From: an uncultured Gammaproteobacteria bacterium
Lineage (GTDB): Bacteria > Pseudomonadota > Gammaproteobacteria > JAKDMP01
Assembly: GCA_964586925.1 (NCBI GenBank)
Contig: CAZPJI010000004.1
Location: forward strand, 1,052-65,051
Reading direction: 5' to 3'
DNA length: 64,000 bases
A program made the translations under genes and the position numbers. Numbering within the stretch: position 1 is the stretch's first letter; the number at the start of each line of letters is the position of its first letter. Positions 37,348 to 51,743 of the stretch are shown here, piece by piece. A model generated the notes under the pieces. It searched no databases. It was not told the origin of the DNA and saw only the letters and a list, made by a program, of their open reading frames with translations.

Positions 37348-37568
37348 GATCCGTGATCATCGCCTGCATCCGCTTTTACCAAATCGTGTTCAGTCCCTGG
37401 CTGGGCAATCATTGCCGCTACTCCCCCACCTGCTCCGCCTACGCCATCGAAGCGGTGCGCAGGCACGGTGTCGTCCGCGGTCTGATCCTGGGCATCGCCC
37501 GGATCAGCCGTTGTCATCCTTTCCACGCCGGAGGCCATGATCCGGTGCCGCCGAGAACACATCACTGA
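37344..37568 (+). CDS. yidD: Membrane protein insertion efficiency factor
   Basis: YQIVFSP..G.HCRYSPTCS.YA.EA...HG...G......RI.RCHPF..GG.DPVP. Confidence 0.95.
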   Translation: MRSVIIACIRFYQIVFSPWLGNHCRYSPTCSAYAIEAVRRHGVVRGLILGIARISRCHPFHAGGHDPVPPRTHH

Positions 37569-39283
37569 TGGATACACGTCGACTTTTTCTCTATATTGCA
37601 TTGGGCTTGATCCTTTTACTGCTCTGGCAGCAGTGGCAAGCGGATCATCCTGTGCCGGTGCAGCATCCGGCTACGCCGGCGGCCAGCAGTACGGCGGCGG
37701 CAGGTAATCAGGCGGCGACGCCGGAAGCGACCTCTCCGAACAAGTCGACCCCACAGACACCGGCCGTAGCGTCGGTAAGCAACGGCGCGATCGGTATCGA
37801 AGCACCCGCCGGGCCGGAAATCACTGTGCATACGGATGTTCTGGATGTTGCCATAGCATTACAGGGCGGCGAACTGACCCGCGCAACCCTGCTCAAATAT
37901 CCGCAAAAGCTGCATTCGAAAGAAAAAGTCAGGTTGTTGGCGGCCGGAACCAGCCAGGGGCCGGCCATGATGATCAAGCCGGAACTGCACGGTTCCGCAT
38001 TGCCCGCAAACCCTGCATTTACAGCATCCGCCAAGGAATACCGTCTTATCCAGGGCCAGGACTCGCTACGCGTGCCACTCACCTGGCATGGAAACGGGAT
38101 CACCGTGCAGCGGGTGCTGGTATTCAAACGGGGCAGCTACCAGGTACAGGTGCAGACGAAAATCGTTAATGCAAGTGATAAGGCATTGACCCTGGTGCCG
38201 GGCGTACGCGTGGTCGGTTCCAATCCCATAACACCCAAACATTTTTGGGATCACTTCCTACCCAAGTACTATGCATATCGCGGACCGGCTTACTACAACG
38301 GCAAAGACGGGTATGAAAAGGTCACGATCAAGGACCTCAACGACCAGCCCCTAGATAAACAATTCAGTGGAGGCTGGATTGCTTCGGTGAAGCAATACTT
38401 TGTAGCGGCCGCGATTCCGGGGGGGAGGCAGAACGCACGATATTTTGCCCATACCCGGGACGGCAAGTACGCACTGGGCTATAACCTGGCACCTCTGGCA
38501 GTCACCGCGGGCGGCCAGGCGAGCACGGATATGCGACTTTTCCTGGGCCCCAAGAAGCAGGGTCTGCTAAAGCAGGTCGCACCCGGTTTGCCGCGTACCG
38601 TTGATTACGGCAAGGCCACGATTATTTGTAAGCCGATTTTTGCCGTTCTCTCTTTTATTCATCGTTTTCTCGGCAACTGGGGGTGGTCGATCATTATCCT
38701 GGTGCTGTTGATCAAGGCATTGTTCTACTTTCCTCAGCGCATGAGCGCACGCTCAATGGCCAAGATGCGTAAGTTGCAGCCGCGTCTTAAATTGCTGCGC
38801 GAGCGCTATAAGGACGATCGGCAGAAATTGTCCCAGGCGACCATGGATCTCTACAAGCAGGAAGGCGCCAATCCGGTGGGTGGTTGCCTGCCCATGCTGA
38901 TCCAGATTCCGATTTTCATCGGCTTGTTCTACGTGTTGATCTACAGTGTCGAGTTGCGCCAGGCGCCCTGGATGCTGTGGATTCATGATTTGTCACAGCC
39001 CGATCCCTATTACGTATTGCCCGTCATCTATGCGGCACTGAGTTTCATTCAGTTCCGCCTGCAGCCGCAGGCCATGGACAATGCGCAGGCCAAGATGATG
39101 ATGGTCATGCCGTTGCTGTTCGCGTTCTTCTATGCCTTGTTCCCGTCGGGCCTGGTCTTGTATTACACGCTCAGCACCGGCCTCAATATCGCGATCCAGT
39201 ACCAGGTCAACCATGAACTGGGAATGAAAGGGTTGGGTGTGTTGCCGAAGATCAATTGGCCGGGTGGCAAAAAAGGCGGTTGA
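37568..39283 (+). CDS. yidC: Membrane protein insertase
   Basis: N-terminal TM, periplasmic domain (KQYFVAA, LFLGPK), VDYG, GNWGWSII, KMRKLQP, NPVGGCLP.LIQIP, WIHDLS.PDP. Confidence 0.97.
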   Translation: MDTRRLFLYIALGLILLLLWQQWQADHPVPVQHPATPAASSTAAAGNQAATPEATSPNKSTPQTPAVASVSNGAIGIEAPAGPEITVHTDVLDVAIALQGGELTRATLLKYPQKLHSKEKVRLLAAGTSQGPAMMIKPELHGSALPANPAFTASAKEYRLIQGQDSLRVPLTWHGNGITVQRVLVFKRGSYQVQVQTKIVNASDKALTLVPGVRVVGSNPITPKHFWDHFLPKYYAYRGPAYYNGKDGYEKVTIKDLNDQPLDKQFSGGWIASVKQYFVAAAIPGGRQNARYFAHTRDGKYALGYNLAPLAVTAGGQASTDMRLFLGPKKQGLLKQVAPGLPRTVDYGKATIICKPIFAVLSFIHRFLGNWGWSIIILVLLIKALFYFPQRMSARSMAKMRKLQPRLKLLRERYKDDRQKLSQATMDLYKQEGANPVGGCLPMLIQIPIFIGLFYVLIYSVELRQAPWMLWIHDLSQPDPYYVLPVIYAALSFIQFRLQPQAMDNAQAKMMMVMPLLFAFFYALFPSGLVLYYTLSTGLNIAIQYQVNHELGMKGLGVLPKINWPGGKKGG

Positions 39284-39308
39284 TAGCAACCACCGCGTCG
39301 CGGCGAGA

Positions 39309-40547
39309 CTACTCGCCGCGCCAGCGCCGGAAAATCAGGCTGGTATTGATGCCGCCGAAGGCGAAGTTATTGCTCATCACGTAATCGACTTCGGCCTCGA
39401 GAGGCTTGCCGGTGATGTGATTGATCGGCGCGATGTCGTCGCCGGGGGTTTCCAGGTTGCGGGTCGGCGCGAACCAGCCCTCATTCATCATCTGGATGGC
39501 AAGCCACGCCTCAAGCGGCCCGCAGGCTCCGATCGGATGCCCGAAATAACCCTTCATGGAACTGACCGGCACCTGGTCTCCTAGAACTTCCAGCGTGGCC
39601 TGTGCTTCCGCCACATCGCCGCGGTCTGTGCCCGTGGCATGGGCACTTACGTACCCGATCTGCTCGGGTTTCAGCTCGGCGTTATCGAGGGCGGCACGCA
39701 TGACCTCAGCCATGGTGACCATATTGGGCCGGGTGATGTGGGTGCCATCGGTATTGCTGGCAAAGCCCGCGATCTCGGCATAGATTCTGGCACCCCGCGC
39801 ACTGGCATGCTCTAGATCTTCAAGGATGAGGGTAGCTCCGCCCTCGCCGACCACGATTCCGTCCCGGGTGGCATCGAATGGGCGCGGCGAGCGTTCAGGG
39901 GTTTCGTTCAAGGTACCGGTGGCACCGATCATATCGAAAACTACGGCACTGACTACCGACAGCTCATCGGCACCGCCGGCCACCATCAGTTCCTGACGTC
40001 CGTCCTGAATGGTTTCGTAGGAGTAGCCGATGCCCTGGCTGCCCGAGGTGCATGCGCTGCACGTCGGAATGAGTCGGCCCGTAATCTTGAAGAACACGCC
40101 GATGTTGACCGCTCCGGTTTGCGCCATCATCTGCACGTAGCTGTTGGGTGCTGCACCGCGTAGTGTGCCGAGTTCGGCGAAACGTCCCGCGGCGACGATG
40201 GGCTTGATGCTTCCTGCCGAGGATCCATAGGCGATGCCGGCGCGGCCGCTGCGCAGGATGGGTTCACCGATCAGTCCGGCGTCCTCGAGCGCGAGCTCGG
40301 AAGCCCGCACGGACAGGGTCGATACGCGGCCCATGCCGCGCATGATCTTGCGGTTGTAATGCGACGGCAGTTCGAAAGCCTGTGCAGGGGCGCCCAGGCG
40401 GGTGTGGAGTTCCTTGTAGTCGTCCCATTCGCTCATGTACCTCACGCCCGTACGGTTTTCCAGCAGGGCGCTGCGAATAGTGGGCCAATCGTGTCCGAGG
40501 GCCGTGAGGCCTCCGCATCCGGTCACGACGACACGGCGCTTCTTCAT
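39309..40547 (-). CDS. Beta-ketoacyl-ACP synthase (FabF/ApeR-like)
   Basis: RRVVVTG, SACTSGSQ (Cys), SAHATGT, KGYFGH, NNFAFGGIN. Confidence 0.92.
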   Translation of the reverse strand: MKKRRVVVTGCGGLTALGHDWPTIRSALLENRTGVRYMSEWDDYKELHTRLGAPAQAFELPSHYNRKIMRGMGRVSTLSVRASELALEDAGLIGEPILRSGRAGIAYGSSAGSIKPIVAAGRFAELGTLRGAAPNSYVQMMAQTGAVNIGVFFKITGRLIPTCSACTSGSQGIGYSYETIQDGRQELMVAGGADELSVVSAVVFDMIGATGTLNETPERSPRPFDATRDGIVVGEGGATLILEDLEHASARGARIYAEIAGFASNTDGTHITRPNMVTMAEVMRAALDNAELKPEQIGYVSAHATGTDRGDVAEAQATLEVLGDQVPVSSMKGYFGHPIGACGPLEAWLAIQMMNEGWFAPTRNLETPGDDIAPINHITGKPLEAEVDYVMSNNFAFGGINTSLIFRRWRGE

Positions 40548-41275
40548 GCAAGTCCTCCGTTGACTCCGATAACTTGTCGTGTGATGTAAGCGGCGGGCGG
40601 TGTGAACAGGAAGGCCACAATCGCGGCGACCTCCTCCGGCGTGCCGGCCCGGCCGGCGGGAATAAGTGGCAGGATGTGCTCCTGGGGCACCTCGGCGCTC
40701 ATATCGGTCTCTATCAGTCCAGGGGCTACGCAGTTGACGGTAATCCGGCGGCTGGCCAGTTCCACCGCCAGGGCCTTGGTGGCGCCGATGATGCCGGCCT
40801 TGGCGGCACTGTAATTGACCTGACCACGGTTGCCAATCTGCCCGGCGACCGAAGACAGGGTGACGATGCGTCCACCCGATCGCAGCCGGACCATCGGCAT
40901 CACCAGTGGCTGAACAACATTGTAGAAGCCGTCCAGGTTAGTGGTGAGGACGTTGTCCCAGGCATCGCCGTCCATGGCGGCAAAGGTATCGTCGTCGGTG
41001 ACGCCGGCATTGGCGACGATTCCCCAGAAGGCGCCGTTGTCCTTGATCTCGCCTTCCAGCGCATCCCGGGTTTGTTCGCGGTCGGCCACGTTGAACGCCA
41101 GGACGGAAGCCGTTCCGCCCGCGTCGCGGATGCCGGCAGCGGTATCCTGCGCAGCATCGACGCGGCTACGGCAATGAACCACGATCTCGAAGCCTGCGCC
41201 ACCCAGTGCCAGGGCGATCGCGCGCCCTATCCCGCGGCTAGCGCCTGTCACCAGAACCCGCTGTTGATCCGTCAT
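40544..41275 (-). CDS. 3-oxoacyl-ACP reductase (FabG/ApeQ-like)
   Basis: VLVTGASRGIG, NAGVTDD, GNRGQVNYSAAK, NCVAPGLIET, VNGG; ATG at 41275. Confidence 0.92.
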   Translation of the reverse strand: MTDQQRVLVTGASRGIGRAIALALGGAGFEIVVHCRSRVDAAQDTAAGIRDAGGTASVLAFNVADREQTRDALEGEIKDNGAFWGIVANAGVTDDDTFAAMDGDAWDNVLTTNLDGFYNVVQPLVMPMVRLRSGGRIVTLSSVAGQIGNRGQVNYSAAKAGIIGATKALAVELASRRITVNCVAPGLIETDMSAEVPQEHILPLIPAGRAGTPEEVAAIVAFLFTPPAAYITRQVIGVNGGLA

Positions 41276-41745
41276 GCTTCTCCCTGGTTCATATCGCCGC
41301 ACCACAGCATCAGGCGGGCACTGACATATAGTTTATCGGCGCACAGGATACGACACTCGAATGTGCCCAATTCGCCGTTTTCCAGATCTGCGGCCTCGCA
41401 ATCGGCCTCGATACGCAGTTCGGTATCCACAGGAAGTCGAGGTTCGGCGATATCGATGCGCTTTACACCGACCAGATAGCCCACAGCCGGCGAGTGGCCC
41501 GTGTTGTCCGGAGTTCGGGATAATCCCAGGTACAGGCCCGCGCACTGGGCCATGATCTCGAGGCCGGCCCAGCCCGGTACGCCGAGGCGCTCAGGGTCAT
41601 ACAGCGCGCTGGCTTCGCGAACGGTCCATTGCGCCGCGACTCTCTGCCCGGGGGCAAAGTCGAGAATACGATCCACGCAACAGGCTTCCGGGCCGTGGGG
41701 CAGCAAGTCAAGGGGCATGGGCCACGCGGCCGGGCAGCTGTTCAC
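41272..41745 (-). CDS. Hotdog-fold dehydratase (ApeP-like); GTG start 41745 inferred
   Basis: LLPH, VDRI, GLEIMAQ, GYLVGVK. Confidence 0.85.
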   Translation of the reverse strand: MNSCPAAWPMPLDLLPHGPEACCVDRILDFAPGQRVAAQWTVREASALYDPERLGVPGWAGLEIMAQCAGLYLGLSRTPDNTGHSPAVGYLVGVKRIDIAEPRLPVDTELRIEADCEAADLENGELGTFECRILCADKLYVSARLMLWCGDMNQGEA

Positions 41746-42218
41746 AGGAATTTTTCCAGGCATTTGAGCAAGACATCGGGGGTGGCAAGCTGCATTTCGC
41801 CATCGGCGTCCACAGCGCACTGGAGGGTGTAGCCGGTTGTGATGCGGGCCCCGTTCTCCGCGTCCGTGATGAGATAACCGATACGCAAGGCGCATTCCCA
41901 CTGCTCGATACCCGCCGCCACATGCAGCCGCTGTGCATAACGGGAGGCCTGCACATAGCGGAGTTTGGCCTCGATAATCGGCCAGGTGTAACCCGAGGCT
42001 TGCATGTCCGGGTAGTCGTAACCGATCTTACGCATCAGGGCGACCCGCGCCGATTCGAAGTGGCGCAGGTAGTGGCCGTGCCAGGTAATCGCCATGGGAT
42101 CCAGGTCGGGGAATTCCACCTCGATCTCCACTGACGCCTCGACCAGCCAGTTTTTGCGGGTGCGCGCAGCACGGCTGCCGGCTGTGGACGTGTTCATGGG
42201 GCAGGGCTCAAGTGGCAT
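41742..42218 (-). CDS. Acyl-CoA/ACP thioesterase (ApeK-like, 4HBT family)
   Basis: F.DLDPM.ITWHGHY..HFESAR, GY.WPIIE, L.IGY.I.DA..G...T.G.T.Q.AV. Confidence 0.88.
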   Translation of the reverse strand: MPLEPCPMNTSTAGSRAARTRKNWLVEASVEIEVEFPDLDPMAITWHGHYLRHFESARVALMRKIGYDYPDMQASGYTWPIIEAKLRYVQASRYAQRLHVAAGIEQWECALRIGYLITDAENGARITTGYTLQCAVDADGEMQLATPDVLLKCLEKFL

Positions 42219-42263
42219 GAATATAGCTCTTCGAGGGTTTGTACGCAGGATACATGAGCAGAC

Positions 42264-43001
42264 TCAGGATAGGTTCCGCGAGCGCCGAGAGCCCCGTGCC
42301 AGGCGTATCGGCATCCCGGCCAGCAGGCGCAGGTGGAGCCAGGTCATGCGCAGGTTGTCGCGAAGCATGCGGAAGTTCGACAGTCCGTCGGTCGGGTAGC
42401 GGACATCGACCGGCAGGAAGCGCACTGGCGTGCCGGACAGGAACAGGCGCACCATGATTTCGGTGTCGAAGTCCATGCGCCGGCCGACCGGTTGGCTGGT
42501 GAAAGCGGCCAGGCTGGCGGCTACTGGATAGACACGATAGCCACACATGGAGTCCTTGAGTTCGCACGACCAGGTCTCGAGCCAGACCAAAAGATGCGTA
42601 ATCCAGCGTCCGTAGTAACGCACCGCCGGAACGCTGTCATCATAGGCCGGCATTCCCGAGATCAGCGCCCGCTCGTCGGCTTGCGCCAATTCGAGCAGCA
42701 GTGGCGCCTGCCGGGGGTCGTGCTGGCCGTCAGCGTCGATTTGCAGGACGTGCGTATAGCCGGCTTCGCCGGCGGCTTCCAGGCCGGTGAGGAAAGCGGC
42801 CCCCTTGCCCCGATTCTCGGTATGGCGCAGAACCGTCACCCGAGGGTCGCCAGCGGCCAGCTTGTCGATCGTCTCAGCGGTAACGGCATCGCTTCCATCG
42901 TCCACCAGGATCACCGGCAGCGATTGGGCACGGAGCTCGCCGACCAGGTACTGCAAGGAGTCGTGGTGATTGTAGATGGGGATCAGTGCGCAGGGCGTCA
43001 T
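42264..43001 (-). CDS. GT2 glycosyltransferase (ApeJ GT-domain-like)
   Basis: LIPIYNH, LVDDGS, NRGKG, QIDADGQH, DSMCGYRVYP, RMDFDTEI. Confidence 0.9.
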   Translation of the reverse strand: MTPCALIPIYNHHDSLQYLVGELRAQSLPVILVDDGSDAVTAETIDKLAAGDPRVTVLRHTENRGKGAAFLTGLEAAGEAGYTHVLQIDADGQHDPRQAPLLLELAQADERALISGMPAYDDSVPAVRYYGRWITHLLVWLETWSCELKDSMCGYRVYPVAASLAAFTSQPVGRRMDFDTEIMVRLFLSGTPVRFLPVDVRYPTDGLSNFRMLRDNLRMTWLHLRLLAGMPIRLARGSRRSRNLS

Positions 43002-43010
43002 AGTCGTTCG

Positions 43011-43376
43011 TCAGAAGTTGAGGCGGCCACGGCTGAGCAGCGCAGCATCAGCCAGGAATTGCCAGCTCACGCGGTTTTCTTCGCGGTGCAGATCGAGCAG
43101 CAGGGCTTTATCGAGCGGCACCGTCTCCAGAAATTTCACCCGGCCGATACTTACGGGATCGTGGCCGAAATCGAAATGCTCCCGGGCGTAGAAAACGGCC
43201 CAGGCGATCTGGGCCACGCCCGGCAACACCGGGCGCGACGGGAAATGGCCCCGGAACCAGACCAGGTTGGGCGGAATGGCAAGATGCAGGCGCACGCCGT
43301 CGGGTAGCGGCTGGCGGTTCCTCAGTTCGGGGAGCCGGGCCGCGGGAGAGGATGTGCTGCCGGCGTCAGCCCTCAT
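43011..43376 (-). CDS. FabZ/ApeI-like dehydratase
   Basis: WFRGHFP..PVLPGVAQI.WA, VKF. Confidence 0.85.
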   Translation of the reverse strand: MRADAGSTSSPAARLPELRNRQPLPDGVRLHLAIPPNLVWFRGHFPSRPVLPGVAQIAWAVFYAREHFDFGHDPVSIGRVKFLETVPLDKALLLDLHREENRVSWQFLADAALLSRGRLNF

Positions 43377-43614
43377 CGATCATGCGGCGGATTTCGCATT
43401 CCACGTCCGCAACGGTGCGGACATGGCGAAACTCCTGTGGGGTCACCTTGCGGCCCGTAAGTTCACGCACCACGATCGCAAGGTCTATGGCATCAATGCT
43501 GTCGAGATCCAGGTCTTCATAAAGACGCGCTTCCGGGCGGATGTCGGCTGGATCCAGCTCGAATCGTTCCACCAGCAACTTGTGAAATCGCGCCGAAATA
43601 TCTTCCTGGTTCAT
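43366..43614 (-). CDS. Acyl carrier protein
   Basis: LYEDLDLDSIDAIDL phosphopantetheine motif; FRHVRTVADV. Confidence 0.92.
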   Translation of the reverse strand: MNQEDISARFHKLLVERFELDPADIRPEARLYEDLDLDSIDAIDLAIVVRELTGRKVTPQEFRHVRTVADVECEIRRMIDEG

Positions 43615-43665
43615 AGGTCGCGCTGCCCCCTCGAATGGGGACGGTAATGGCCGGAGGGAAAGTGG

Positions 43666-44481
43666 TCAGGGCGGCAAAAGTGGTTCATGTGGCTTGGAAG
43701 ACAGTTGTCGTAAAAAATAATTTTCTAGGCCCCGTGTGGCCCGCCGCGCCATCCGAGATAAATCCTCGGAGGAGCCCCCGGCAAAGTCGGCAATGTCGCA
43801 AGGCGCACCAAAGCGTATCACAAGATGTACGCGCCTGTCGGGCATCCGGTACCAGGGATGGCCGTGGGTCAGCGCCGGCGGGTCGCAGTGGACCACAAGC
43901 GGCACAATGCGGAGTCCGGCACGCAGGGCTACCTGGGCCGCGCCGCGGCGGAAGCGCAGGGGCGCACCCGGGGTAGAGCGCGTGCCTTCGGGGAAGATCA
44001 GGATTGGCTCGCCTCGCGTGCTGGCCGCGCGGCAGGCCTCGATCAGTTTTTGCGGATCGTCGTTGTCGCAGGCGATGTAGCCGCCCAGTCGAGTGAACGG
44101 GAAAAACAGCGGGTGATTGAGCAGCGAGGATTTCATGACGCAATTTACGCGCGGAAGATGAGCCATGAGAAAGACGGCGTCGAGATAGCTCGGATGGTTG
44201 GCTACCAGCAGGCAACCCGCCAGATCCGGGATGCCGTCGCTGCGCACCTCGATGTCGGCCAAGCCGAAACCTTCGATCATGCGGATCAATAGGCGGAATC
44301 CCACACTGGCCAGCCCGCGAATCCGCTGCTCCCGCAAGCGGCGCGGCGTGACCAGCAACAGGATTGGCAATGGGACAAACAGGCCAAACAGGGCCACAAT
44401 GCCGAAAATGGCGAAGCCCAGGCCGGCGAGCGCACTGTGGCGCAGGCTCTCGATCCGGTTAAAGCCGTGTGTTTCCATCAA
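43666..44481 (-). CDS. PlsC-type acyltransferase (ApeD-like)
   Basis: VANHPSYLD, CVMK, IFPEGTRS, F.RGAA. Confidence 0.88.
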   Translation of the reverse strand: MMETHGFNRIESLRHSALAGLGFAIFGIVALFGLFVPLPILLLVTPRRLREQRIRGLASVGFRLLIRMIEGFGLADIEVRSDGIPDLAGCLLVANHPSYLDAVFLMAHLPRVNCVMKSSLLNHPLFFPFTRLGGYIACDNDDPQKLIEACRAASTRGEPILIFPEGTRSTPGAPLRFRRGAAQVALRAGLRIVPLVVHCDPPALTHGHPWYRMPDRRVHLVIRFGAPCDIADFAGGSSEDLSRMARRATRGLENYFLRQLSSKPHEPLLPP

Positions 44482-45371
44482 TGCGCCCAGTAATCGTAGA
44501 AATTGAACCAGTTATCGGGCGCATCCCGGGCATAGCGTTCCAGGCAGTCCACGTATTTTTGCGTTAACTGGTGAATGGCCTGTTCACGATCCGCTCGTCT
44601 TACCCGTTCGCCGGCGCACAGTTCTTCCAGATAAAGATCGTAACGATTACCACCCCGGTAAATGCCTGCGTAAAACAGGACCGGGCAGCCCAGGACCAGT
44701 GCGGCCTGCGTGACGCCGGTGGCGAAACGTGCCGGCTTGCCGAGGAAGGGCAGATCCAGAATGTGGGTATCGGACGGAGCCACGCGGTCGGAAAGTGCGG
44801 CTACAAAACTGCCTTTTTCTATCCGGTCGCTGAGCTGCATCAGTACGTCGGGAGATCCCAGGGGAATGCAGCGGCGCGCAAGGTCCGGATCCAACGTGGC
44901 AAAAGTCCGGGTAATGCGTGCATTGTGCTCGGGATAGAAAAGGATGTGTATGTCTAGGCCGGCCCGCTGCCGCGCCAGGGCACGCATGGCGAAAAAGCTG
45001 CCCATATGGGCACCCAGAAGGATTGCGCCCCGCCCCTGGTTTTGCAGGTCGAGGAGAGGTTCCGGGTTGTGGATGCGAATATCGAGTAGATCGGTACGGC
45101 TCGCCAGCAGATAGGTGCGATCCAAGGTAACCGCGGCAAAATTCCAGTAGGTTCGAGCCACATCCCGCCATTTTGGCGGGGCTGGTCGTGCCCGGCTCAG
45201 GAATTCCCGGACACTGCGCTGCTCGCTGCGCGTAACCAGCAGGAACCAGGCAACGGCGGGAAAGAGGCACAGGCGGGCCAGACGGCGGCCACCACGCAGC
45301 GCCGACAAACGCATGAAGGCGATCCACAGGCCGTTTCCGCGCTCCCGGCGTGTGCTCCAGTCGCCGCTCAC
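44478..45371 (-). CDS. LpxL/LpxP-like acyltransferase; GTG start 45371 inferred
   Basis: W....ERG, LLGAH.GSF, DR, FLG..A.F..G, P.NWFNFYDYW. Confidence 0.85.
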   Translation of the reverse strand: MSGDWSTRRERGNGLWIAFMRLSALRGGRRLARLCLFPAVAWFLLVTRSEQRSVREFLSRARPAPPKWRDVARTYWNFAAVTLDRTYLLASRTDLLDIRIHNPEPLLDLQNQGRGAILLGAHMGSFFAMRALARQRAGLDIHILFYPEHNARITRTFATLDPDLARRCIPLGSPDVLMQLSDRIEKGSFVAALSDRVAPSDTHILDLPFLGKPARFATGVTQAALVLGCPVLFYAGIYRGGNRYDLYLEELCAGERVRRADREQAIHQLTQKYVDCLERYARDAPDNWFNFYDYWAH

Positions 45372-46690
45372 GTCGGTTCCGGGGCTGGCGGCACGGCATG
45401 GCGGGAGACGATATCCAGCAAGTAGCTGCGTTGTAGCTTGCCGGTCCCGGTGCGCTCCAGGTGGGGGACGCAAATCAGGGGGCGCGGCATAAATATCGGA
45501 TCGATCAATCGTGCCAGACGGGTTCGTATATCCGCAGGCTGTAGACACGGCGCAACCACCACGGCGGCCAGGCGGGCATCGGCCTCGTCGGGGGCCACGA
45601 AGCTGCCCTCTTCCACGCCGTCTATGGACAAGAGGTGGTGATTCAGTTCCGCCAGCGAGGTTCTTTTCCCGGCGAGCTTGATCTGATCGCTGCTGCGGCC
45701 GAGCAGGATGAAGTGGCCGCCGGCTTCGATCTGCAAGCGGTCGGACAGTGGCCGGGGGCCGTCCAGATAGGGCGCATGTACCACGCAGCTCCCGTCCGAG
45801 GGTTCCAAGCTCACGTCGGCATACAGGGTCCAGGCAGAATCACGGCTCGTGCGCCGGCTGGCCAGCGCACCGGCTTCGCTGCAGCCGTAGATTTCGTGCA
45901 CAGCAGCGCCCAATCGGCTTTCGGCACGTGCCGCCAGGTCCGGATCCAGGGGGGCGGTGGCGCTTACGATCCCGGCCAGGTCCGGCCAGTCGAGTCCGGC
46001 GCGCAGACAGACATCGAGATGCAACGGTGTTGTGATGAGCACCCGGGGCGCCTCCAGTGCTTGCAGAGCCGCGCAGACATCGGCCGGATAAAGGGGGTGT
46101 CCGCTATGCACGACACCCGGCCCCAACAGGGTGTAGAGCACGCTGGATTCGAAGCCGTAGGAATGTTGCGCCGGCACCGTAGCGACAATCTGGTGCCCCG
46201 TCTTTTCAAGGGCAAATCGGTCCATGGCCCGTAATGTGACGCCATACAGCTCCTTCCAGGTCTTGGCCTGTGCCCGTGGTTCGCCCGTACTTCCCGAGGT
46301 AAAAAGAATGGCTGCCCTGTGACTGGACTCGATCAGGGGAGCGTCAGGGCTTTCCGTGGCGGATCCGATCGCATTCTCCAGGCCTTCAACCAGTTCGTCG
46401 TTTATTCGATAGGCTTCGTAACGGCGCGCGAGCGATTCGAGCATGCCGGGCGCTTGCCCCGGTGGCAGCAAGGCCGTTTGCCCGCGCATCAGCAGTGCGG
46501 CGAATGCCACCATGAAGTTGTAACGGTTCGCGCACATCAGGAGCGCATGGCGGCGATCCGGAAGTGCCCGCGCCAATGCCGCTGCGTGCTTCAAGTAGGC
46601 ACGGCGGGAGATCAGGCTACCTCTGTGCCAGGCCAGTGGAGCATCGTGTGGTGTGACGCCCAGCAGGGGGAGTAATTCGCGGTTGCTCAT
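45368..46690 (-). CDS. Acyl/aryl-ACP ligase (AMP-binding; XanA2-like)
   Basis: PLAW.....S...Y, C.NRY.F.V.FAA..MRGQ..LLPP, FTSGSTGEP, H.YGFE, EIYGCSEAG, KLAGKR.SL.ELN; ATG at 46690. Confidence 0.85.
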   Translation of the reverse strand: MSNRELLPLLGVTPHDAPLAWHRGSLISRRAYLKHAAALARALPDRRHALLMCANRYNFMVAFAALLMRGQTALLPPGQAPGMLESLARRYEAYRINDELVEGLENAIGSATESPDAPLIESSHRAAILFTSGSTGEPRAQAKTWKELYGVTLRAMDRFALEKTGHQIVATVPAQHSYGFESSVLYTLLGPGVVHSGHPLYPADVCAALQALEAPRVLITTPLHLDVCLRAGLDWPDLAGIVSATAPLDPDLAARAESRLGAAVHEIYGCSEAGALASRRTSRDSAWTLYADVSLEPSDGSCVVHAPYLDGPRPLSDRLQIEAGGHFILLGRSSDQIKLAGKRTSLAELNHHLLSIDGVEEGSFVAPDEADARLAAVVVAPCLQPADIRTRLARLIDPIFMPRPLICVPHLERTGTGKLQRSYLLDIVSRHAVPPAPEPT

Positions 46691-47361
46691 GGTCGGAACA
46701 AACGCAGAAAGTCGATATGGCGTATACGCGACCAATCGATGGGTTCGGCAGCCTTCAGTTCATTGCGCAGCCAGAATTGGCGGAAGAGCCACTCGCTCAG
46801 GAAAAAGCCGATCGGCAGTGCATAGGGAGCCACATTTATCCACCACCACCAGAAAGCCCCCGCGGGAATAAAAGCGACGGCGAACGTGATCAGACTCATC
46901 AGCGCCATAAGCACGGCCCAATACCAGGCCACGGCGCGGATGTAGGCACGTTCCCGGGGGCTGCGTTCCGGGCGAATCGTGCAGGCGATAAGCGTGATGA
47001 TATCGGTTTTCCCGGGCCGTAAGCCGCGCAGGAAAAGCCAGCTGATCAGGGCCTGGACGATGGCGGTCGTCAGGCTCAGCGCCGCGAGCGGGCCCTTGAG
47101 GGCGAACATGATGACGACCAGCACCAGATTGCACAAAGCCAACAGGAAGGCGGTCTTATTCCTTTCCAGCAGTCCCTGTGTGGCTCCCAGTACCAGCATC
47201 AGGACGAGCATCCAGGCTGCCGGGCGTGCATGCCCCGAGGCGGTGGCAAGGGCAACGAGCACGACATAGGCCAGCAGGAGCAGAACCCATGCCGCACCTA
47301 GAAGCTGGTGCAGTCTGTTTTGGGGGAGGCGGCGCTGCGGTTGAGCGTCATCGGGAGACAT
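46687..47361 (-). CDS. Membrane protein of aryl-polyene clusters (ApeG/COG4648-like)
   Basis: Multi-TM; Y.RAV..YW, W....N...Y, F..EW.FR. Confidence 0.7.
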   Translation of the reverse strand: MSPDDAQPQRRLPQNRLHQLLGAAWVLLLLAYVVLVALATASGHARPAAWMLVLMLVLGATQGLLERNKTAFLLALCNLVLVVIMFALKGPLAALSLTTAIVQALISWLFLRGLRPGKTDIITLIACTIRPERSPRERAYIRAVAWYWAVLMALMSLITFAVAFIPAGAFWWWWINVAPYALPIGFFLSEWLFRQFWLRNELKAAEPIDWSRIRHIDFLRLFRP

Positions 47362-47372
47362 GCGCGTAGCCG

Positions 47373-47651
47373 TCAGGCGTTTTCCGCCCGGCGAGCAGCG
47401 ATATAGGCGGCCAGTGCGCGCAGCGACCGGAAGGCCTCTCGATCCCGTTCGTTATCCGATTTCAGTTGTACGCCGTATTGTTTGGCTATAGCCAGAGACA
47501 ATTCCAGGGCATCGATGGAGTCCAGACCCAGGCCTTCACGGAACAGGCGCGCCTCGGGGTCGATGTCCTCGGCGGTTACATCTTCCAGTTCCAGTGCGGA
47601 CACGATCAGTTGCGCCACGTCCAGTTCAAAGTCGGTCATTTGTCCACTCAC
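47373..47651 (-). CDS. Acyl carrier protein (XanC/ApeE-like)
   Basis: IDPEA.LF.EGLGLDSIDALEL...I.KQYG. Confidence 0.92.
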   Translation of the reverse strand: MSGQMTDFELDVAQLIVSALELEDVTAEDIDPEARLFREGLGLDSIDALELSLAIAKQYGVQLKSDNERDREAFRSLRALAAYIAARRAENA

Positions 47652-47790
47652 CCGGGCCCTCGATGCCCTGTTTCTCAGCGAGATTATCCTATATTGTGTG
47701 ACACGGCTTGAAAAGCTCGTAAATTCGGCGATTTATCGCTAATATGCGCCCGGTTTGCCCGGTCTGTACGAATACAGCGGAGAAAGCGTG

Positions 47791-49131
47791 ATGAGGGATG
47801 AACAGGCGCAGGACGCCTTGAGCTGCGATGTGGCCGTTATTGGTGGAGGGCCTGCTGGCGCCGCTACAGCGGCCTTGCTGGCCCGCAAGGGGCGCGATGT
47901 CGTTGTGTTCGAGAAGGATCACCATCCCCGATTTCATATCGGCGAATCCCTGATCCCGCAAACCCTGCCGCTGCTGGAAAAGCTCGGCGTTCTGGATCAG
48001 GTGGACAAGACGGTCGGGTTGCTCAAGCCGGGTGCGAATTTCTACTCGGACACGCACCCCAACGTTCAGCAAACCTACTACTTCCGCGAGGCCTGGGACA
48101 AACAATGGCCCCATGCCTATGAAGTCAGGCGCAGCGAGTTCGACAAAATGCTCTTCGACAATGCCCAGGCATCTGGAGCACGCACCTTTGAGGGCGCACG
48201 GGTCGCTTCGGTGGACTTCGAAAGCGATGGCTCCAGCCGTGTCCAAGTGCGTCTCCGGAACGGCGAAGAGCAAAGCTGGACCGCCCGCTACGTAGTGGAC
48301 GCCAGCGGACGGGACACCATGCTGTCATCGAAGCACAAGCTCAAACGGAAGAACCGCCGCCACAACAGTGCGGCCATTTTTGGCCATTACCGTAACGTCC
48401 CGCGCCAGGAAGGCGAGGATGAGGGCAACATTACGGTTTACTGGTTCGAGCATGGCTGGTTCTGGCTCATTCCGCTAAAGGGCGGAATCATGAGCGTCGG
48501 GGCAGTGTGTTGGCCCGAATACCTCAAGACCCGCGATTGTTCGCCTGCGGAGTTTCTCGAACGGACCTGGAAGCTGTCACCCTCGCTCGGCAAGCGCATG
48601 GCGAATGCAGAACTCGAAGGCGAAGTCCGGGCGACCGGCAACTTCACCTACTTGTCCAAGGCCGCTGCCGGCAAGGGGTATTTGCTGGTCGGTGATGCTT
48701 TCGCGTTTCTGGACCCGGTGTTTTCCAGCGGCGTTCACCTGGCCTTGGCGGGGGCCTTCAAGGGTGCCGATACAGTGGATGCCATTCTCGACAATCCAGC
48801 CCGGGCACGAAAGCTGACGCGGGAATACGAACGTTACCTGCGCCGTGGCATGAAGGTATTCGCCTGGTTCATATATCGCTTCAATACACGCGCGCTGCAC
48901 AACCTGTTCATGTCGCCGCGAGACGTGCAACGAATGCCGGAGGCTGTCACCACGATGCTGGCCGGAGACGTGTTTCGCAAGACCCCGATACGCTGGCCGA
49001 TGTTCCTGTTCCGGCTGGTGTATTACGTCACTGCGCTCGCCAATTACCGCGCCAGTCTCGCATGGTGGTGGCGGAGGAGGCGCAACCTGCATGTGGTTAC
49101 CAGCGGCTCCACGCCCGCGGATTCCGGCTGA
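47791..49131 (+). CDS. FAD-dependent oxidoreductase, probable flavin-dependent halogenase
   Basis: GGGPAG, PRFHIGESL, LLKPGANF (conserved Lys), VDASGR, WFWLIP (WxWxIP), VGDAFAFLDPVFSSGV. Confidence 0.8.
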   Translation: MRDEQAQDALSCDVAVIGGGPAGAATAALLARKGRDVVVFEKDHHPRFHIGESLIPQTLPLLEKLGVLDQVDKTVGLLKPGANFYSDTHPNVQQTYYFREAWDKQWPHAYEVRRSEFDKMLFDNAQASGARTFEGARVASVDFESDGSSRVQVRLRNGEEQSWTARYVVDASGRDTMLSSKHKLKRKNRRHNSAAIFGHYRNVPRQEGEDEGNITVYWFEHGWFWLIPLKGGIMSVGAVCWPEYLKTRDCSPAEFLERTWKLSPSLGKRMANAELEGEVRATGNFTYLSKAAAGKGYLLVGDAFAFLDPVFSSGVHLALAGAFKGADTVDAILDNPARARKLTREYERYLRRGMKVFAWFIYRFNTRALHNLFMSPRDVQRMPEAVTTMLAGDVFRKTPIRWPMFLFRLVYYVTALANYRASLAWWWRRRRNLHVVTSGSTPADSG

Positions 49132-49141
49132 TCAAGCCGGG

Positions 49142-49939
49142 TCAGCCGGTTTGTTGGCAGTGAATTATCAGGTGCGATTCGTCCAGATAGGGTAGCCGGA
49201 TTTCTGCATCGGCTTGAGCGCACGCGAGTGCCGTGAGCAGCGGCAGGGCGCGGGCAGCCGGATTGCCCGTGCGCAACGCTTCAAGGTGGGGATCTGCGAG
49301 TGTCGACTCTTCGCCCCCCCTCTCCAGGCGCAAGGATAAGCCGGTCGACGCACCGTCCGGTTGCCGGCGCAGTAAGAGCGCACAGGCAAATTCGCCCTGG
49401 CCCGGGCGGGTCTTGTTGAGCGGCTCGGGCAGTGTCCGGTCATAGGCCACGAGCAGCACCGGTATGCCTTCGGCGGCCATGGTGGCTGCCTCGAGCAGTC
49501 CGGCGGAGAATGTGGCGTCGTGAGCCGCCACGGCAGTGTGGGGCGTCATGGCGTGTGCCGCGATGGACCAGTAGCCGGCCGGAGCGTTGTGCACGGAGTT
49601 GTGGAACTGGGTCGGCGATACGGCCGGCTCCGGTCTCGTCAGTTCCTCGCAGATCGCATGGATGATGTCACCGTCACCATTGCCGCTCGCAAACACAGTA
49701 GCCACTTGCCGGGCGTTTTCCGGGGAGCCGCCAAAGGCTTCTTCGGCGACGGCCAGGGCGAGGCGCATGGTGGTGGACAAGCGCCTTCTTTCATTGGCCG
49801 GCAGGCCCTGGGGGCTGAGTCTGGGCAAGGGCTCGGGTCGATAGGCTGCGGTGCCTGCAAGGCACTCCCGGGCCGTGGGCCAACCCACCAGGCCGGGCGC
49901 AGCGAAACCGATACCACTCGCCGTCAATCGCGTCATCAT
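49142..49939 (-). CDS. Beta-ketoacyl synthase chain-length factor
   Basis: ERRRLS....LAL, VFAS..GD, SPT.FHNSVHNAPAGYWSI, GLLEA, LVAYD; no catalytic Cys motif. Confidence 0.85.
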   Translation of the reverse strand: MMTRLTASGIGFAAPGLVGWPTARECLAGTAAYRPEPLPRLSPQGLPANERRRLSTTMRLALAVAEEAFGGSPENARQVATVFASGNGDGDIIHAICEELTRPEPAVSPTQFHNSVHNAPAGYWSIAAHAMTPHTAVAAHDATFSAGLLEAATMAAEGIPVLLVAYDRTLPEPLNKTRPGQGEFACALLLRRQPDGASTGLSLRLERGGEESTLADPHLEALRTGNPAARALPLLTALACAQADAEIRLPYLDESHLIIHCQQTG

Positions 49940-51141
49940 GCCGCCCGCCCCACGACAAGGCTTGCATTGCTACCGCCGAAACCGAAAGCATTCACCATGA
50001 TTCGGGAAACGGACTGTTTGCGGTTTTCCAGCACGATATCGGCATCGATGACCGGATCCACGCGGCGCGTGTTGAGGCTGGCCGGGACAAGGCCGTGTTC
50101 CAGTGCCAGAGCGGCGATACCGAAACCCATGATTCCTGCGGCGCCCAGTGTGTGCCCGCACCAGCCTTTGGTCGAACTGCTGGCCTGGCCTGGCCCGAAC
50201 ACTCGGCGCAAGGCGAGATCCTCGGCCTTGTCATTGGCCGGTGTTCCGGTACCGTGAAGATGAACCCAATCGATGTCGGTGGGATTTAGCCCGGCGCGGT
50301 CAAGTGCAGCCTGCATGGCCAGGGCCGCGCCGGCGCCTTCGGGATGCGGCGCCGACATGTGATGGGCGTCACCGCTTTCGCCGAATCCCATCAGTATGGG
50401 CGATTCTTTACCCTCAGAGGCATCCGGCCATTCCAGCAGCGCAAAGCCGGCGGCTTCCCCGAGATTGATGCCGTCCCGCTCCGCATCCGCCGGGCGGCAG
50501 GGCGAGGTGCTGACCAGTTGCAGGGAATGAAAACCATACAGAGTCATCAGGCACAGGCTGTCAACGCCGCCAACCAAGGCGGCTTGGCAAAGGCCGGCCT
50601 GCATATAGCGTGCAGCGGTTGCGAAGACTTTGGCGCTTGAGGAGCAGGCGGTCGACACGGCCAGGGCCGGGCCGGACAATCCCAGGGTTTTACGCACGAA
50701 AGCCGGCAGGGTAAACATATCCTGACTGTGGCTATAGGAAAACCACTCGGGAAGTTCGCCCGTAGCTTGGCGTTCCCGATAGGCACACTCGGTCAACTCG
50801 ATGCCACTGGTGCTGGTGCCCAGGAAAACGCCGATATTCCCCGCGCCATAGCGCTCCCGCAGGCGCAGGCATTCGTCCTGGAAGCCATCCTCGTTCAACG
50901 CCATATGCGCCAGGCGGTTATTGCGGCAATTCCAGGCCGACAGATTGTCCGGCAAGCGATATTCGTCGAGATCAGCAACGCGCCCGATCCAGGTATCAAG
51001 TTTCACGTGAGGGTGATCGCACCGGGTGAGGCCTCCACGATTGTTGCGCAGAGCATCGAGGGTAGCGGCACGGCCACGGCCAAGCGCGCTGGTAATGGTC
51101 CAGGCAGAGGCGATCAAGGGGTGCATGGGTGAAAGATTCAT
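49936..51141 (-). CDS. Beta-ketoacyl-ACP synthase (ApeO/XanK-like); start uncertain (51141 or 51126)
   Basis: SALG.G, RNN.L, LGTSTSG, STACSSSAK (Cys), HLHGTGT..ND, KGWCGHTLGAAG, NAFGFGG.N. Confidence 0.9.
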   Translation of the reverse strand: MNLSPMHPLIASAWTITSALGRGRAATLDALRNNRGGLTRCDHPHVKLDTWIGRVADLDEYRLPDNLSAWNCRNNRLAHMALNEDGFQDECLRLRERYGAGNIGVFLGTSTSGIELTECAYRERQATGELPEWFSYSHSQDMFTLPAFVRKTLGLSGPALAVSTACSSSAKVFATAARYMQAGLCQAALVGGVDSLCLMTLYGFHSLQLVSTSPCRPADAERDGINLGEAAGFALLEWPDASEGKESPILMGFGESGDAHHMSAPHPEGAGAALAMQAALDRAGLNPTDIDWVHLHGTGTPANDKAEDLALRRVFGPGQASSSTKGWCGHTLGAAGIMGFGIAALALEHGLVPASLNTRRVDPVIDADIVLENRKQSVSRIMVNAFGFGGSNASLVVGRAA

Positions 51142-51206
51142 GGGTCGCAAGGACTAATTTTAACCAGTACCGCTACTATGACACGACTTTCAGGAGAAAA
51201 TGCTCA

Positions 51207-51743
51207 ATGAGCGAAGCGGAGAACCCGGCCCGTATTTTGCACGAAGGTGAATTCCTGCGCTTGCTGAGACGCCGGCACTGGGAATACGTCGAGCGCACCA
51301 ATGCCCATGGCGTCGCCGTCATTGTGGCTGTCACGGATGCCGACGAACTGTTGCTGGTCGAGCAGTATCGCTTGCCGGTTCAGCAGCCGGTCATTGAGTT
51401 GCCGGCGGGCCTTGTCGGAGACATCGGTGAGGAAGAGACCCTACTCGAAGCTGCGCAACGCGAGCTTGAAGAAGAAACCGGTTACCGTGCTGCCCGAATG
51501 AGCGAACTGGCCTCGGGACCGACCACGGCCGGCTTGAGCAACGAAATAACCACTTTTTGCCGGGCTGATGGTTTGAAGCGCGTGGGACCGGGCGGCGGCG
51601 ACGACAGCGAAACCATCACGGTGTATCCAGTGCCACTGGCGGGTCTGCGCGATTGGTTGAGTACGCAGTCTTTACGCGCCGCCATTGATCCGAAGCTCTA
51701 TGCCGGTCTTTGGCTGGCCGGCATAGAGCCCGAGGCAGTCTGA
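51207..51743 (+). CDS. Nudix hydrolase (ADP-sugar pyrophosphatase-like)
   Basis: EQYRLP, IELPAGLVGD, AAQRELEEETGY; ATG at 51207. Confidence 0.88.
   Translation: MSEAENPARILHEGEFLRLLRRRHWEYVERTNAHGVAVIVAVTDADELLLVEQYRLPVQQPVIELPAGLVGDIGEEETLLEAAQRELEEETGYRAARMSELASGPTTAGLSNEITTFCRADGLKRVGPGGGDDSETITVYPVPLAGLRDWLSTQSLRAAIDPKLYAGLWLAGIEPEAV

Follow-up and report, generated by a model that had tools for sequence, protein, structure and literature searches.

Xanthomonadin (pig) clusters of Xanthomonas contain a halogenase gene, and in several genomes halogenase genes lie beside a conserved pair of ketosynthase (KS) and chain-length factor (CLF) genes, whereas Lysobacter and Xylella lack it and the pigment of Lysobacter carries no bromine (Wang et al. 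2013, PMC3691225, including its Figure 5). In Azoarcus sp. BH72, which has split clusters, the halogenase gene arcA adjoins arcB, a homologue of XanB2, and similar clusters are found in Dechloromonas, Variovorax and Sideroxydans (Schöner et al. 2014, PMC3949708). Here we describe a probable halogenase gene (47791-49131, plus strand) in an aryl-polyene (APE) cluster of an uncultured gammaproteobacterium. The DNA analysed, referred to as the window, is the stretch of 64,000 nucleotides at positions 1,052 to 65,051 (forward strand) of contig CAZPJI010000004.1, assembly GCA_964586925.1; coordinates are those of the window unless another contig or locus is given.

We put the probability at roughly 80-90% that 47791-49131 encodes a true flavin-dependent halogenase (FDH) working in the APE pathway of 39309-51150. 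The protein is very likely the orthologue of the halogenase of many xanthomonadin-type APE clusters and a tailoring enzyme of the cluster at 39309-51150, which resembles a type II polyketide synthase. With somewhat less assurance, we think it probable that the natural product does contain halogen. Thus, the bacterium probably synthesises a membrane pigment that carries bromine or chlorine; the choice between the two is not readable from the sequence, and we infer both halide use and the timing of the step.

The first-pass annotation of this DNA had proposed a halogenase in an APE- or xanthomonadin-like cluster, and this proposal was borne out by sequence, profile, fold and gene context. It had also remarked that the organism was not obviously a xanthomonad. 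The host is indeed an uncultured gammaproteobacterium whose nearest named relative, for the halogenase protein, is Acidihalobacter, but the novelty that this implied is weak, since such clusters outside xanthomonads were published in 2013-2014. The system is a further example of the already described xanthomonadin-type cluster with a halogenase, not a new kind, and it extends the long list of bacteria with predicted xanthomonadin-like pigments by one uncultured lineage.

The predicted halogenase

FDHs such as PrnA, RebH, CndH and PltA use reduced FAD, O2 and halide to form hypohalous acid, which a conserved Lys delivers to an electron-rich aromatic carbon. By every computational criterion applied, 47791-49131 is predicted to encode an enzyme of this class, a placement based on profile scores, pairwise alignments and comparison of folds. 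The protein matched Pfam Trp_halogenase (PF04820) with 109.7 bits against a cut-off of 21 (E = 2e-31), and its best NCBIfam match was the CmlS halogenase model NF033113 (223.5 bits), over positions 3-360 of the 570-aa model. It is the sole gene of the Trp_halogenase family in the 2.56-Mb, 98%-complete assembly. The start codon is the ATG at 47791, with a GGAG ribosome-binding site (RBS) 8 nt upstream, and a database record of 446 aa is 100% identical to the resulting protein; the TTG at 47755, where the open reading frame begins, is not used as the start.

The ten best sequence matches in the PDB were FDHs or a structural-genomics relative (E = 6.5e-59 to 1e-39) and included FasV (8zop), CndH, RadH, Mpy16, CmlS, PltA, ChlB4, 3nix and Bmp2. 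The first non-halogenase in the list, the flavin monooxygenase 8uiu, followed at 5.9e-11, and a geranylgeranyl-type reductase, 3oz2, at 2.7e-8. Thus, the protein did not group with non-halogenating reductases, the outcome that the first-pass annotation had named as telling against a halogenase: non-halogenases matched with E >= 6e-11, compared with 6.5e-59 for the best halogenase. We likewise rejected a non-halogenating reductase or monooxygenase on profile scores, because none of the models for geranylgeranyl reductase, UbiH, QhpG and LodB reached its own cut-off or the scores of the halogenase models.

Fold comparison gave the same picture. An AlphaFold2 model built from a 15-sequence alignment had a mean pLDDT of 88.1 and a pTM of 0.89, and in a Foldseek search of the PDB the top 38 matches consisted of halogenases and the structural-genomics protein 3nix; TM scores were 0.74-0.83 for the nearest nine solved proteins, among them FasV, PltA, RadH, CmlS, CndH and Bmp2. 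The solved FDHs FasV (8zop), CndH (3e1t), PltA (5dbj), Mpy16/Bmp2 (5buk/5bva), CmlS (3i3l) and RadH (8gu0) share both fold and motifs with the window protein. At 26-31% identity over ~400 residues, however, they are remote paralogues, none of which acts on an aryl polyene, and the window protein differs from them in having its own helical C-terminal region of ~110 residues that ends in a basic amphipathic helix.

The motifs reported earlier, GGGPAG (residues 18-23), LLKPGANF (with Lys79) and WFWLIP (223-228), are present at the expected site, together with HIGESL (49-54) and FLDPVFSSG (306-314). When 68 homologues taken from genome contigs were aligned, G18-G20, P21, G23, H49-L54, K79, W223, W225, I227, P228, F306, D308, P309, F311, S312 and G314 were invariant (68/68). 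Lys79 aligned with the Lys of IKRGGTF in CndH and of RKYGGSL in FasV, and WFWLIP and FLDPVFSSG aligned with the matching motifs of both enzymes. Given the Trp_halogenase E value and this invariance, a chance origin of these features is excluded by a wide margin. The motifs had been read as the mark of halogenases that act on carrier-bound substrates. They do mark FDHs generally, but they are not specific for carriers: the nearest structures include free-substrate enzymes (FasV, RadH) as well as carrier-dependent ones (PltA, Mpy16, Bmp2, CndH).

Four residues after the catalytic Lys, in KPGANF, the window protein has Asn83 (48037-48039), which is unique to it; 66/68 homologues have Glu or Asp at this position, and a relative of the same genus (L003) reads KPGAEF. 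The conserved C-terminal helix (48988-49098) ends in AWWWRRRRN, a patch of aromatic and basic residues, and the consensus of the homologues also reads RRRRN. This helix lacks the hydrophobicity of a transmembrane segment but could serve for peripheral attachment to the membrane or for binding a partner. A membrane-anchored halogenase was rejected, since no 19-residue window reaches a Kyte-Doolittle mean of 1.6 and the WWWRRRR helix is amphipathic at most.

The cluster at 39309-51150 and its unlinked parts

Profile searches of the window proteins placed an APE cluster at 39309-51150. Within it, the halogenase gene is flanked on one side by an operon encoding an acyl carrier protein (ACP), a membrane protein and an aryl-AMP-ligase, and on the other by a CLF lacking the active-site Cys and a KS. 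The features are as follows.

39309-40547, minus strand: second ketosynthase, PRK09116 type, ApeR-like (NF006587, 621.8 bits, cut-off 470)
40544-41305, minus strand: 3-oxoacyl-ACP reductase (KR), FabG2/ApeQ/XanH-like (NF004200, 365 bits; TIGR01831, 356.6 bits, cut-off 338.85)
41272-41901, minus strand: ApeP-like dehydratase (DH), a weak match (PF22817, 21.9 bits, and FabA, 20.2 bits, both below cut-off)
41742-42218, minus strand: hot-dog thioesterase (TE), YbgC/ApeK-like (NCBIfam TIGR00051, 46.8 bits; MenI-like, 58 bits)
42264-43001, minus strand: family-2 glycosyltransferase (GT), ApeJ-like (several GT2 NCBIfam models, E = 1e-12 to 1e-6)
43011-43376, minus strand: ApeI-like hot-dog dehydratase (PF22818, 55.8 bits)
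43366-43614, minus strand: second ACP (ACP2), PRK05350 type (NF003757, 104.6 bits, cut-off 65)
43666-44481, minus strand: lysophospholipid (PlsC-type) acyltransferase (LPLAT; PF01553, 85.7 bits)
44478-45548, minus strand: LpxL-like (lipid A lauroyl-type) acyltransferase (PF03279, 34.7 bits)
45368-46735, minus strand: aryl-acid AMP-ligase, XanA2/ArcT-like (PF00501, 60.3 bits; best NCBIfam match the 4-coumarate-CoA ligase model, 85 bits, below cut-off)
46687-47361, minus strand: polytopic membrane protein of 224 aa with ~4-5 hydrophobic segments (no Pfam or NCBIfam match)
47373-47651, minus strand: ACP, XanC/ApeE-like, with the phosphopantetheine Ser in LGLDSID (PF00550, 39.3 bits; NF006617 PRK09184, 118.6 bits, cut-off 70)
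47652-47790, no strand: ACP/halogenase intergenic region of 139 bp, with a sigma-70-like GTGACA-16-TAAATT at 47698-47725 on the plus strand (consensus match only)
47791-49131, plus strand: predicted FDH of 446 aa (PF04820, PDB matches, AlphaFold2/Foldseek, motifs, RBS)
49124-49149, no strand: GC-rich hairpin across the convergent halogenase and CLF stops (pattern match only)
49142-49939, minus strand: CLF-like KS partner, ApeC/Lysobacter ORF16-like, without active-site Cys in its translation (PF13723 Ketoacyl-synt_2, 111 bits)
49936-51150, minus strand: elongating KS, ApeO/ORF17-like, with Cys in STACSSS and both His motifs (NF006618 PRK09185, 501 bits, cut-off 407)

The region 47373-51141, to which the first-pass annotation was confined, contains four genes, namely those for the ACP (minus), the FAD protein (plus), the CLF (minus) and the KS (minus). 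Profile matches confirmed the ACP, CLF and KS at the positions assigned to them, although the right end of the region falls short, as the KS open reading frame reaches 51150. The description of the FAD gene as divergently transcribed holds with respect to the ACP operon but not with respect to the CLF/KS pair, which is convergent with it. The stop codons of the halogenase and CLF genes are 10 bp apart, and the hairpin that spans them is, from its sequence, a possible bidirectional terminator. The ACP at 47373-47651 likely carries the aryl starter, and the AMP-ligase at 45368-46735 is presumed to be a hydroxybenzoate:ACP ligase.

As a stand-in for Xanthomonas we compared the locus of Pseudoxanthomonas jiangsuensis (L043), which has a halogenase of 52% identity, the same divergent PRK09184-type ACP (65%), and an LpxL-like acyltransferase, AMP-ligase, KR and GT nearby; the xanthomonadin-type logic of a KS with a Cys-less CLF is common to both. 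The window differs from xanthomonadin-type clusters in that its CLF and KS lie immediately downstream of the halogenase in convergent orientation, XanB2 and MMPL/LolA are unlinked, and the left half is of the E. coli Ape type. The arcuflavin system of Azoarcus BH72, likened here from its published description, shares with the window a non-xanthomonad host, a split cluster, a halogenase, a XanB2-type chorismatase and an AMP-ligase, which in Azoarcus activates 3-hydroxybenzoic acid (3-HBA). It differs in that its halogenase gene sits beside XanB2 and its product is a non-halogenated dialkylresorcinol (DAR) ester; DAR genes did not come to light here, although no search aimed at them was made.

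Several families that flank the halogenase elsewhere are absent from the window, and we searched for them in the window's own assembly. An MMPL exporter gene on contig C2 (L083:9595-11925) encodes a protein with 39% identity over 755 residues to cluster-linked MMPLs, and a LolA_3 gene lies beside it (L083:12041-12754; 113.9 bits). The neighbours of this pair are spoT, a RidA-like gene, recG and ubiA. On contig C24 we found a XanB2-like chorismatase of the FkbO/Hyg5 type (L084:7397-8437; PF21168, 92.5 bits), which shares 32% identity with XanB2-like genes next to halogenases elsewhere; its TIGR04444 score of 212 bits is below the subfamily cut-off of 325. It is flanked by asmA and thiG. With the exporter pair and the chorismatase on other contigs, a "stripped" cluster lacking exporter or starter supply was rejected: the cluster is split rather than stripped, and the exporter and starter genes that had appeared to be missing are present but unlinked. 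A coumarate starter made by a tyrosine ammonia-lyase was also rejected. The sole PF00221 gene of the genome is HutH (TIGR01225, 633 bits) in a hutH-hutI-hutF-hutG operon, and because this is the only aromatic ammonia-lyase, a hydroxybenzoate starter is the supported reading.

Orthologues, proposed pathway and alternatives

The halogenase belongs to a very common family, with at least 8000 scored candidates, all of them significant, and at least 595 genome loci. Members occur in Gamma-, Beta- and Alphaproteobacteria, Nitrospira and Nitrospinaceae, with ~50% identity across phyla, and within the Xanthomonadales in Pseudoxanthomonas, Dyella, Rhodanobacter and Dokdonella. The gene is conserved in 4/4 genomes of the window's genus and in 7/9 of its family.

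We fetched 80 loci of the family and compared the genes within 10 kb. Orthologues of the cluster's GT, LpxL-like acyltransferase, KR, KS, CLF, ACP and AMP-ligase were each found in 22-34 of the 80 loci (AMP-ligase 22, with 36-47% identity; CLF 27, with 35-65%; LpxL-like acyltransferase 32; GT 34). When only loci flanked by 8 kb or more on each side were considered, 20/34 had two or more APE-specific genes, and two more had XanB2 with an acyltransferase and a GT. A recurring core was apparent, in which AMP-ligase, membrane protein and ACP genes, all on the minus strand, are followed by the divergent halogenase gene on the plus strand and often then by XanB2, also on the plus strand; the window holds the left half of this core. 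The ACP gene is adjacent to and divergent from that of the halogenase in 14/73 loci and in all family relatives, and XanB2 lies 3 kb or less downstream in 21/60 loci. All family relatives and at least 13 distant loci have a homologue of the 224-aa membrane protein between the genes for the ACP and the AMP-ligase, and this protein is thus a recurrent, uncharacterised component of xanthomonadin-type initiation modules.

The association was also evident at the level of whole genomes. Of 201 genomes sampled evenly across the class, 18 carried a halogenase orthologue (threshold E <= 1e-80) and 42 carried the APE CLF (PF13723). All 18 orthologue-bearing genomes were among the latter (hypergeometric p = 1.7e-14). 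The family is strictly tied to APE genomes and is present in ~40% of the APE-bearing gammaproteobacterial lineages. The co-occurrence holds even when halogenase and CLF are separated by hundreds of kilobases or lie on separate contigs.

On this basis the following pathway is proposed. The unlinked XanB2-like chorismatase would supply 3- or 4-hydroxybenzoate, which the AMP-ligase (45368-46735) would load onto the dedicated ACP (47373-47651). The halogenase would work as a two-component enzyme, in which FADH2 from a separate flavin reductase reacts with O2 to give a flavin-C4a-hydroperoxide; this would convert Br- or Cl- to hypohalous acid, which Lys79 would hold behind the WxWxIP wall and which would then halogenate the electron-rich hydroxyphenyl ring and possibly also an adjacent polyene carbon, as in xanthomonadin I. 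During this step the substrate is most likely still bound to the ACP, and from the conserved adjacency of the halogenase gene to those for the ACP, the AMP-ligase and, in other genomes, XanB2 we infer early action on hydroxybenzoyl-S-ACP. The KS/CLF, the KR and the dehydratases would extend the polyene, the acyltransferases and the GT would join it to lipid, and the unlinked MMPL/LolA-like pair would deliver the product to the outer membrane. Across the family the enzyme may act on aryl-ACP or on the finished polyene, with a preference for either halide, and one enzyme might give both bromine positions of xanthomonadin I.

Several observations weigh against a halogenase with this role. The CmlS model is the only FDH equivalog model that matched, and its 223.5 bits are far under the equivalog cut-off of 900; with the C-terminal "winged-helix" extension part of the model unmatched as well, orthology with CmlS itself was rejected. 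The substrate assignment has no characterised orthologue as an anchor, and in the open-access literature we found cluster-level mentions but no biochemical characterisation of any member of the APE-linked halogenase family. The residue at Lys+4 is Asn, where characterised FDHs have Thr or Ser; given these other residues, the Asn is probably harmless. The cluster contains no flavin reductase, and one PF01613 Flavin_Reduct gene is found elsewhere (C34:8079-8480). FDHs are commonly served by unlinked flavin reductases. No O-methyltransferase of the cluster type, which would provide a 3-methoxy group, is present in the window, and the methyltransferase family linked to clusters at other loci has only 35%-identical, probably housekeeping, matches elsewhere in the genome.

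In addition, 12 of the 34 full-flank loci lack APE genes within 10 kb. Such solo orthologues (~50% identity; L007, L008, L024, L042, L047, L057, L069, L070, L074, L075, L078 and L082, among others) occur in lineages such as Steroidobacteraceae, Rhodanobacteraceae and Methyloprofundus, in lineage-specific neighbourhoods, and no common alternative neighbourhood was found among the 12 loci, so that they pointed to no second pathway. Because the co-occurrence with the CLF persists at a distance, the solo orthologues are best explained by split clusters of the kind published for Azoarcus. Finally, the arcuflavin of Azoarcus BH72 was assigned as a non-brominated aryl-heptaene despite the presence of arcA (PMC3949708), and gene presence therefore does not make a halogenated product certain.

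This last point is the main caveat on halogenation and also speaks for an alternative that we consider unlikely, in which a protein with the FDH fold leaves the pigment unhalogenated in vivo. The protein might be silent, act only when bromide is available, or modify the aryl head group as a hydroxylase or other monooxygenase, and the product would be a xanthomonadin-like APE lipid without halogen. Arcuflavin is non-brominated although arcA adjoins XanB2, non-halogenating relatives from the superfamily do match below threshold (QhpG, 172 bits; LodB, 112 bits; GoxB, 102 bits), and the database names of homologues include "hydroxylase" and "NAD(P)/FAD-dependent oxidoreductase". However, WxWxIP and the catalytic Lys, which separate halogenases from monooxygenases, are invariant (68/68) across several phyla, which argues for selection on halogenase chemistry, and characterised halogenases are the best matches in both sequence and structure. 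Presence of the gene and bromination also go together in Xanthomonas, which has both, and Lysobacter, which has neither (PMC3691225), and the Azoarcus result may only reflect a halide-poor medium.

It is far less probable still that the substrate is unrelated to the aryl polyene (e.g., free 4-hydroxybenzoate or another phenolic) and that the position in the cluster is incidental: the solo loci, the Nudix gene that takes the place of the KS/CLF after the halogenase in sister genera, and the additional role of XanB2-type enzymes in supplying ubiquinone synthesis, according to literature that PMC3949708 and PMC6859482 cite, fit such a view, but it is opposed by the CLF in 18/18 orthologue-bearing genomes and by the divergent ACP/membrane protein/AMP-ligase neighbourhood that is kept across the family and in distant taxa.

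Mosaic character and genomic setting

An FDH of the xanthomonadin-type APE pathway thus remains the favoured assignment for 47791-49131, and the cluster around it combines parts of two APE subtypes. Its left half (39309-43614; PRK09116-type KS, FabG2, ApeP-like DH, TE, GT, ApeI-like DH and ACP2) resembles the E. coli-type Ape set. By family matches, the ApeR-like KS, FabG2 KR, ApeI- and ApeP-like DHs, TE, GT and LPLAT, as well as two ACPs and the KS/CLF, are common to the window cluster and the apeA-R cluster of E. coli and Xenorhabdus. To our knowledge, the E. coli/Xenorhabdus clusters have neither a halogenase nor an LpxL-like acyltransferase, and keep MMPL and LolA inside the cluster. Within 10 kb of the 80 other halogenase orthologues, the TE was found at 1 locus, the ApeI-like DH at 2, and ACP2 and the ApeP-like DH at none. 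Because the left half resembles the E. coli-type set and is almost without counterpart beside other halogenases, we regard the cluster as a mosaic. Its other component is the xanthomonadin-type initiation module, made up of the hydroxybenzoate ligase, ACP, membrane protein, LpxL-like acyltransferase and halogenase. Rather speculatively, E. coli-type elongation and tailoring joined to such a module might yield an undescribed halogenated aryl-polyene lipid scaffold, and halogenated polyene lipids of the outer membrane might be widespread in uncultured environmental bacteria.

A CLF/KS pair immediately after the halogenase and convergent with it was seen only in the window's genus, and 0/68 other loci have this arrangement. 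In two sister genera of the same family (L089, L090) a Nudix gene directly follows the halogenase (67-69% identity; window region 49142-51743), and this conserved neighbour may or may not be part of the pathway.

In the window, a Nudix gene and murB mark the right edge of the cluster, and on the left it ends at yidC, followed by the dnaA-dnaN-recF-gyrB origin region. The usual gene after yidC is mnmE. Here, yidC and the cluster are convergent with 25 bp between their stops (37568-39309), and dnaA is ~3 kb away, which places the cluster in the replication-origin region.

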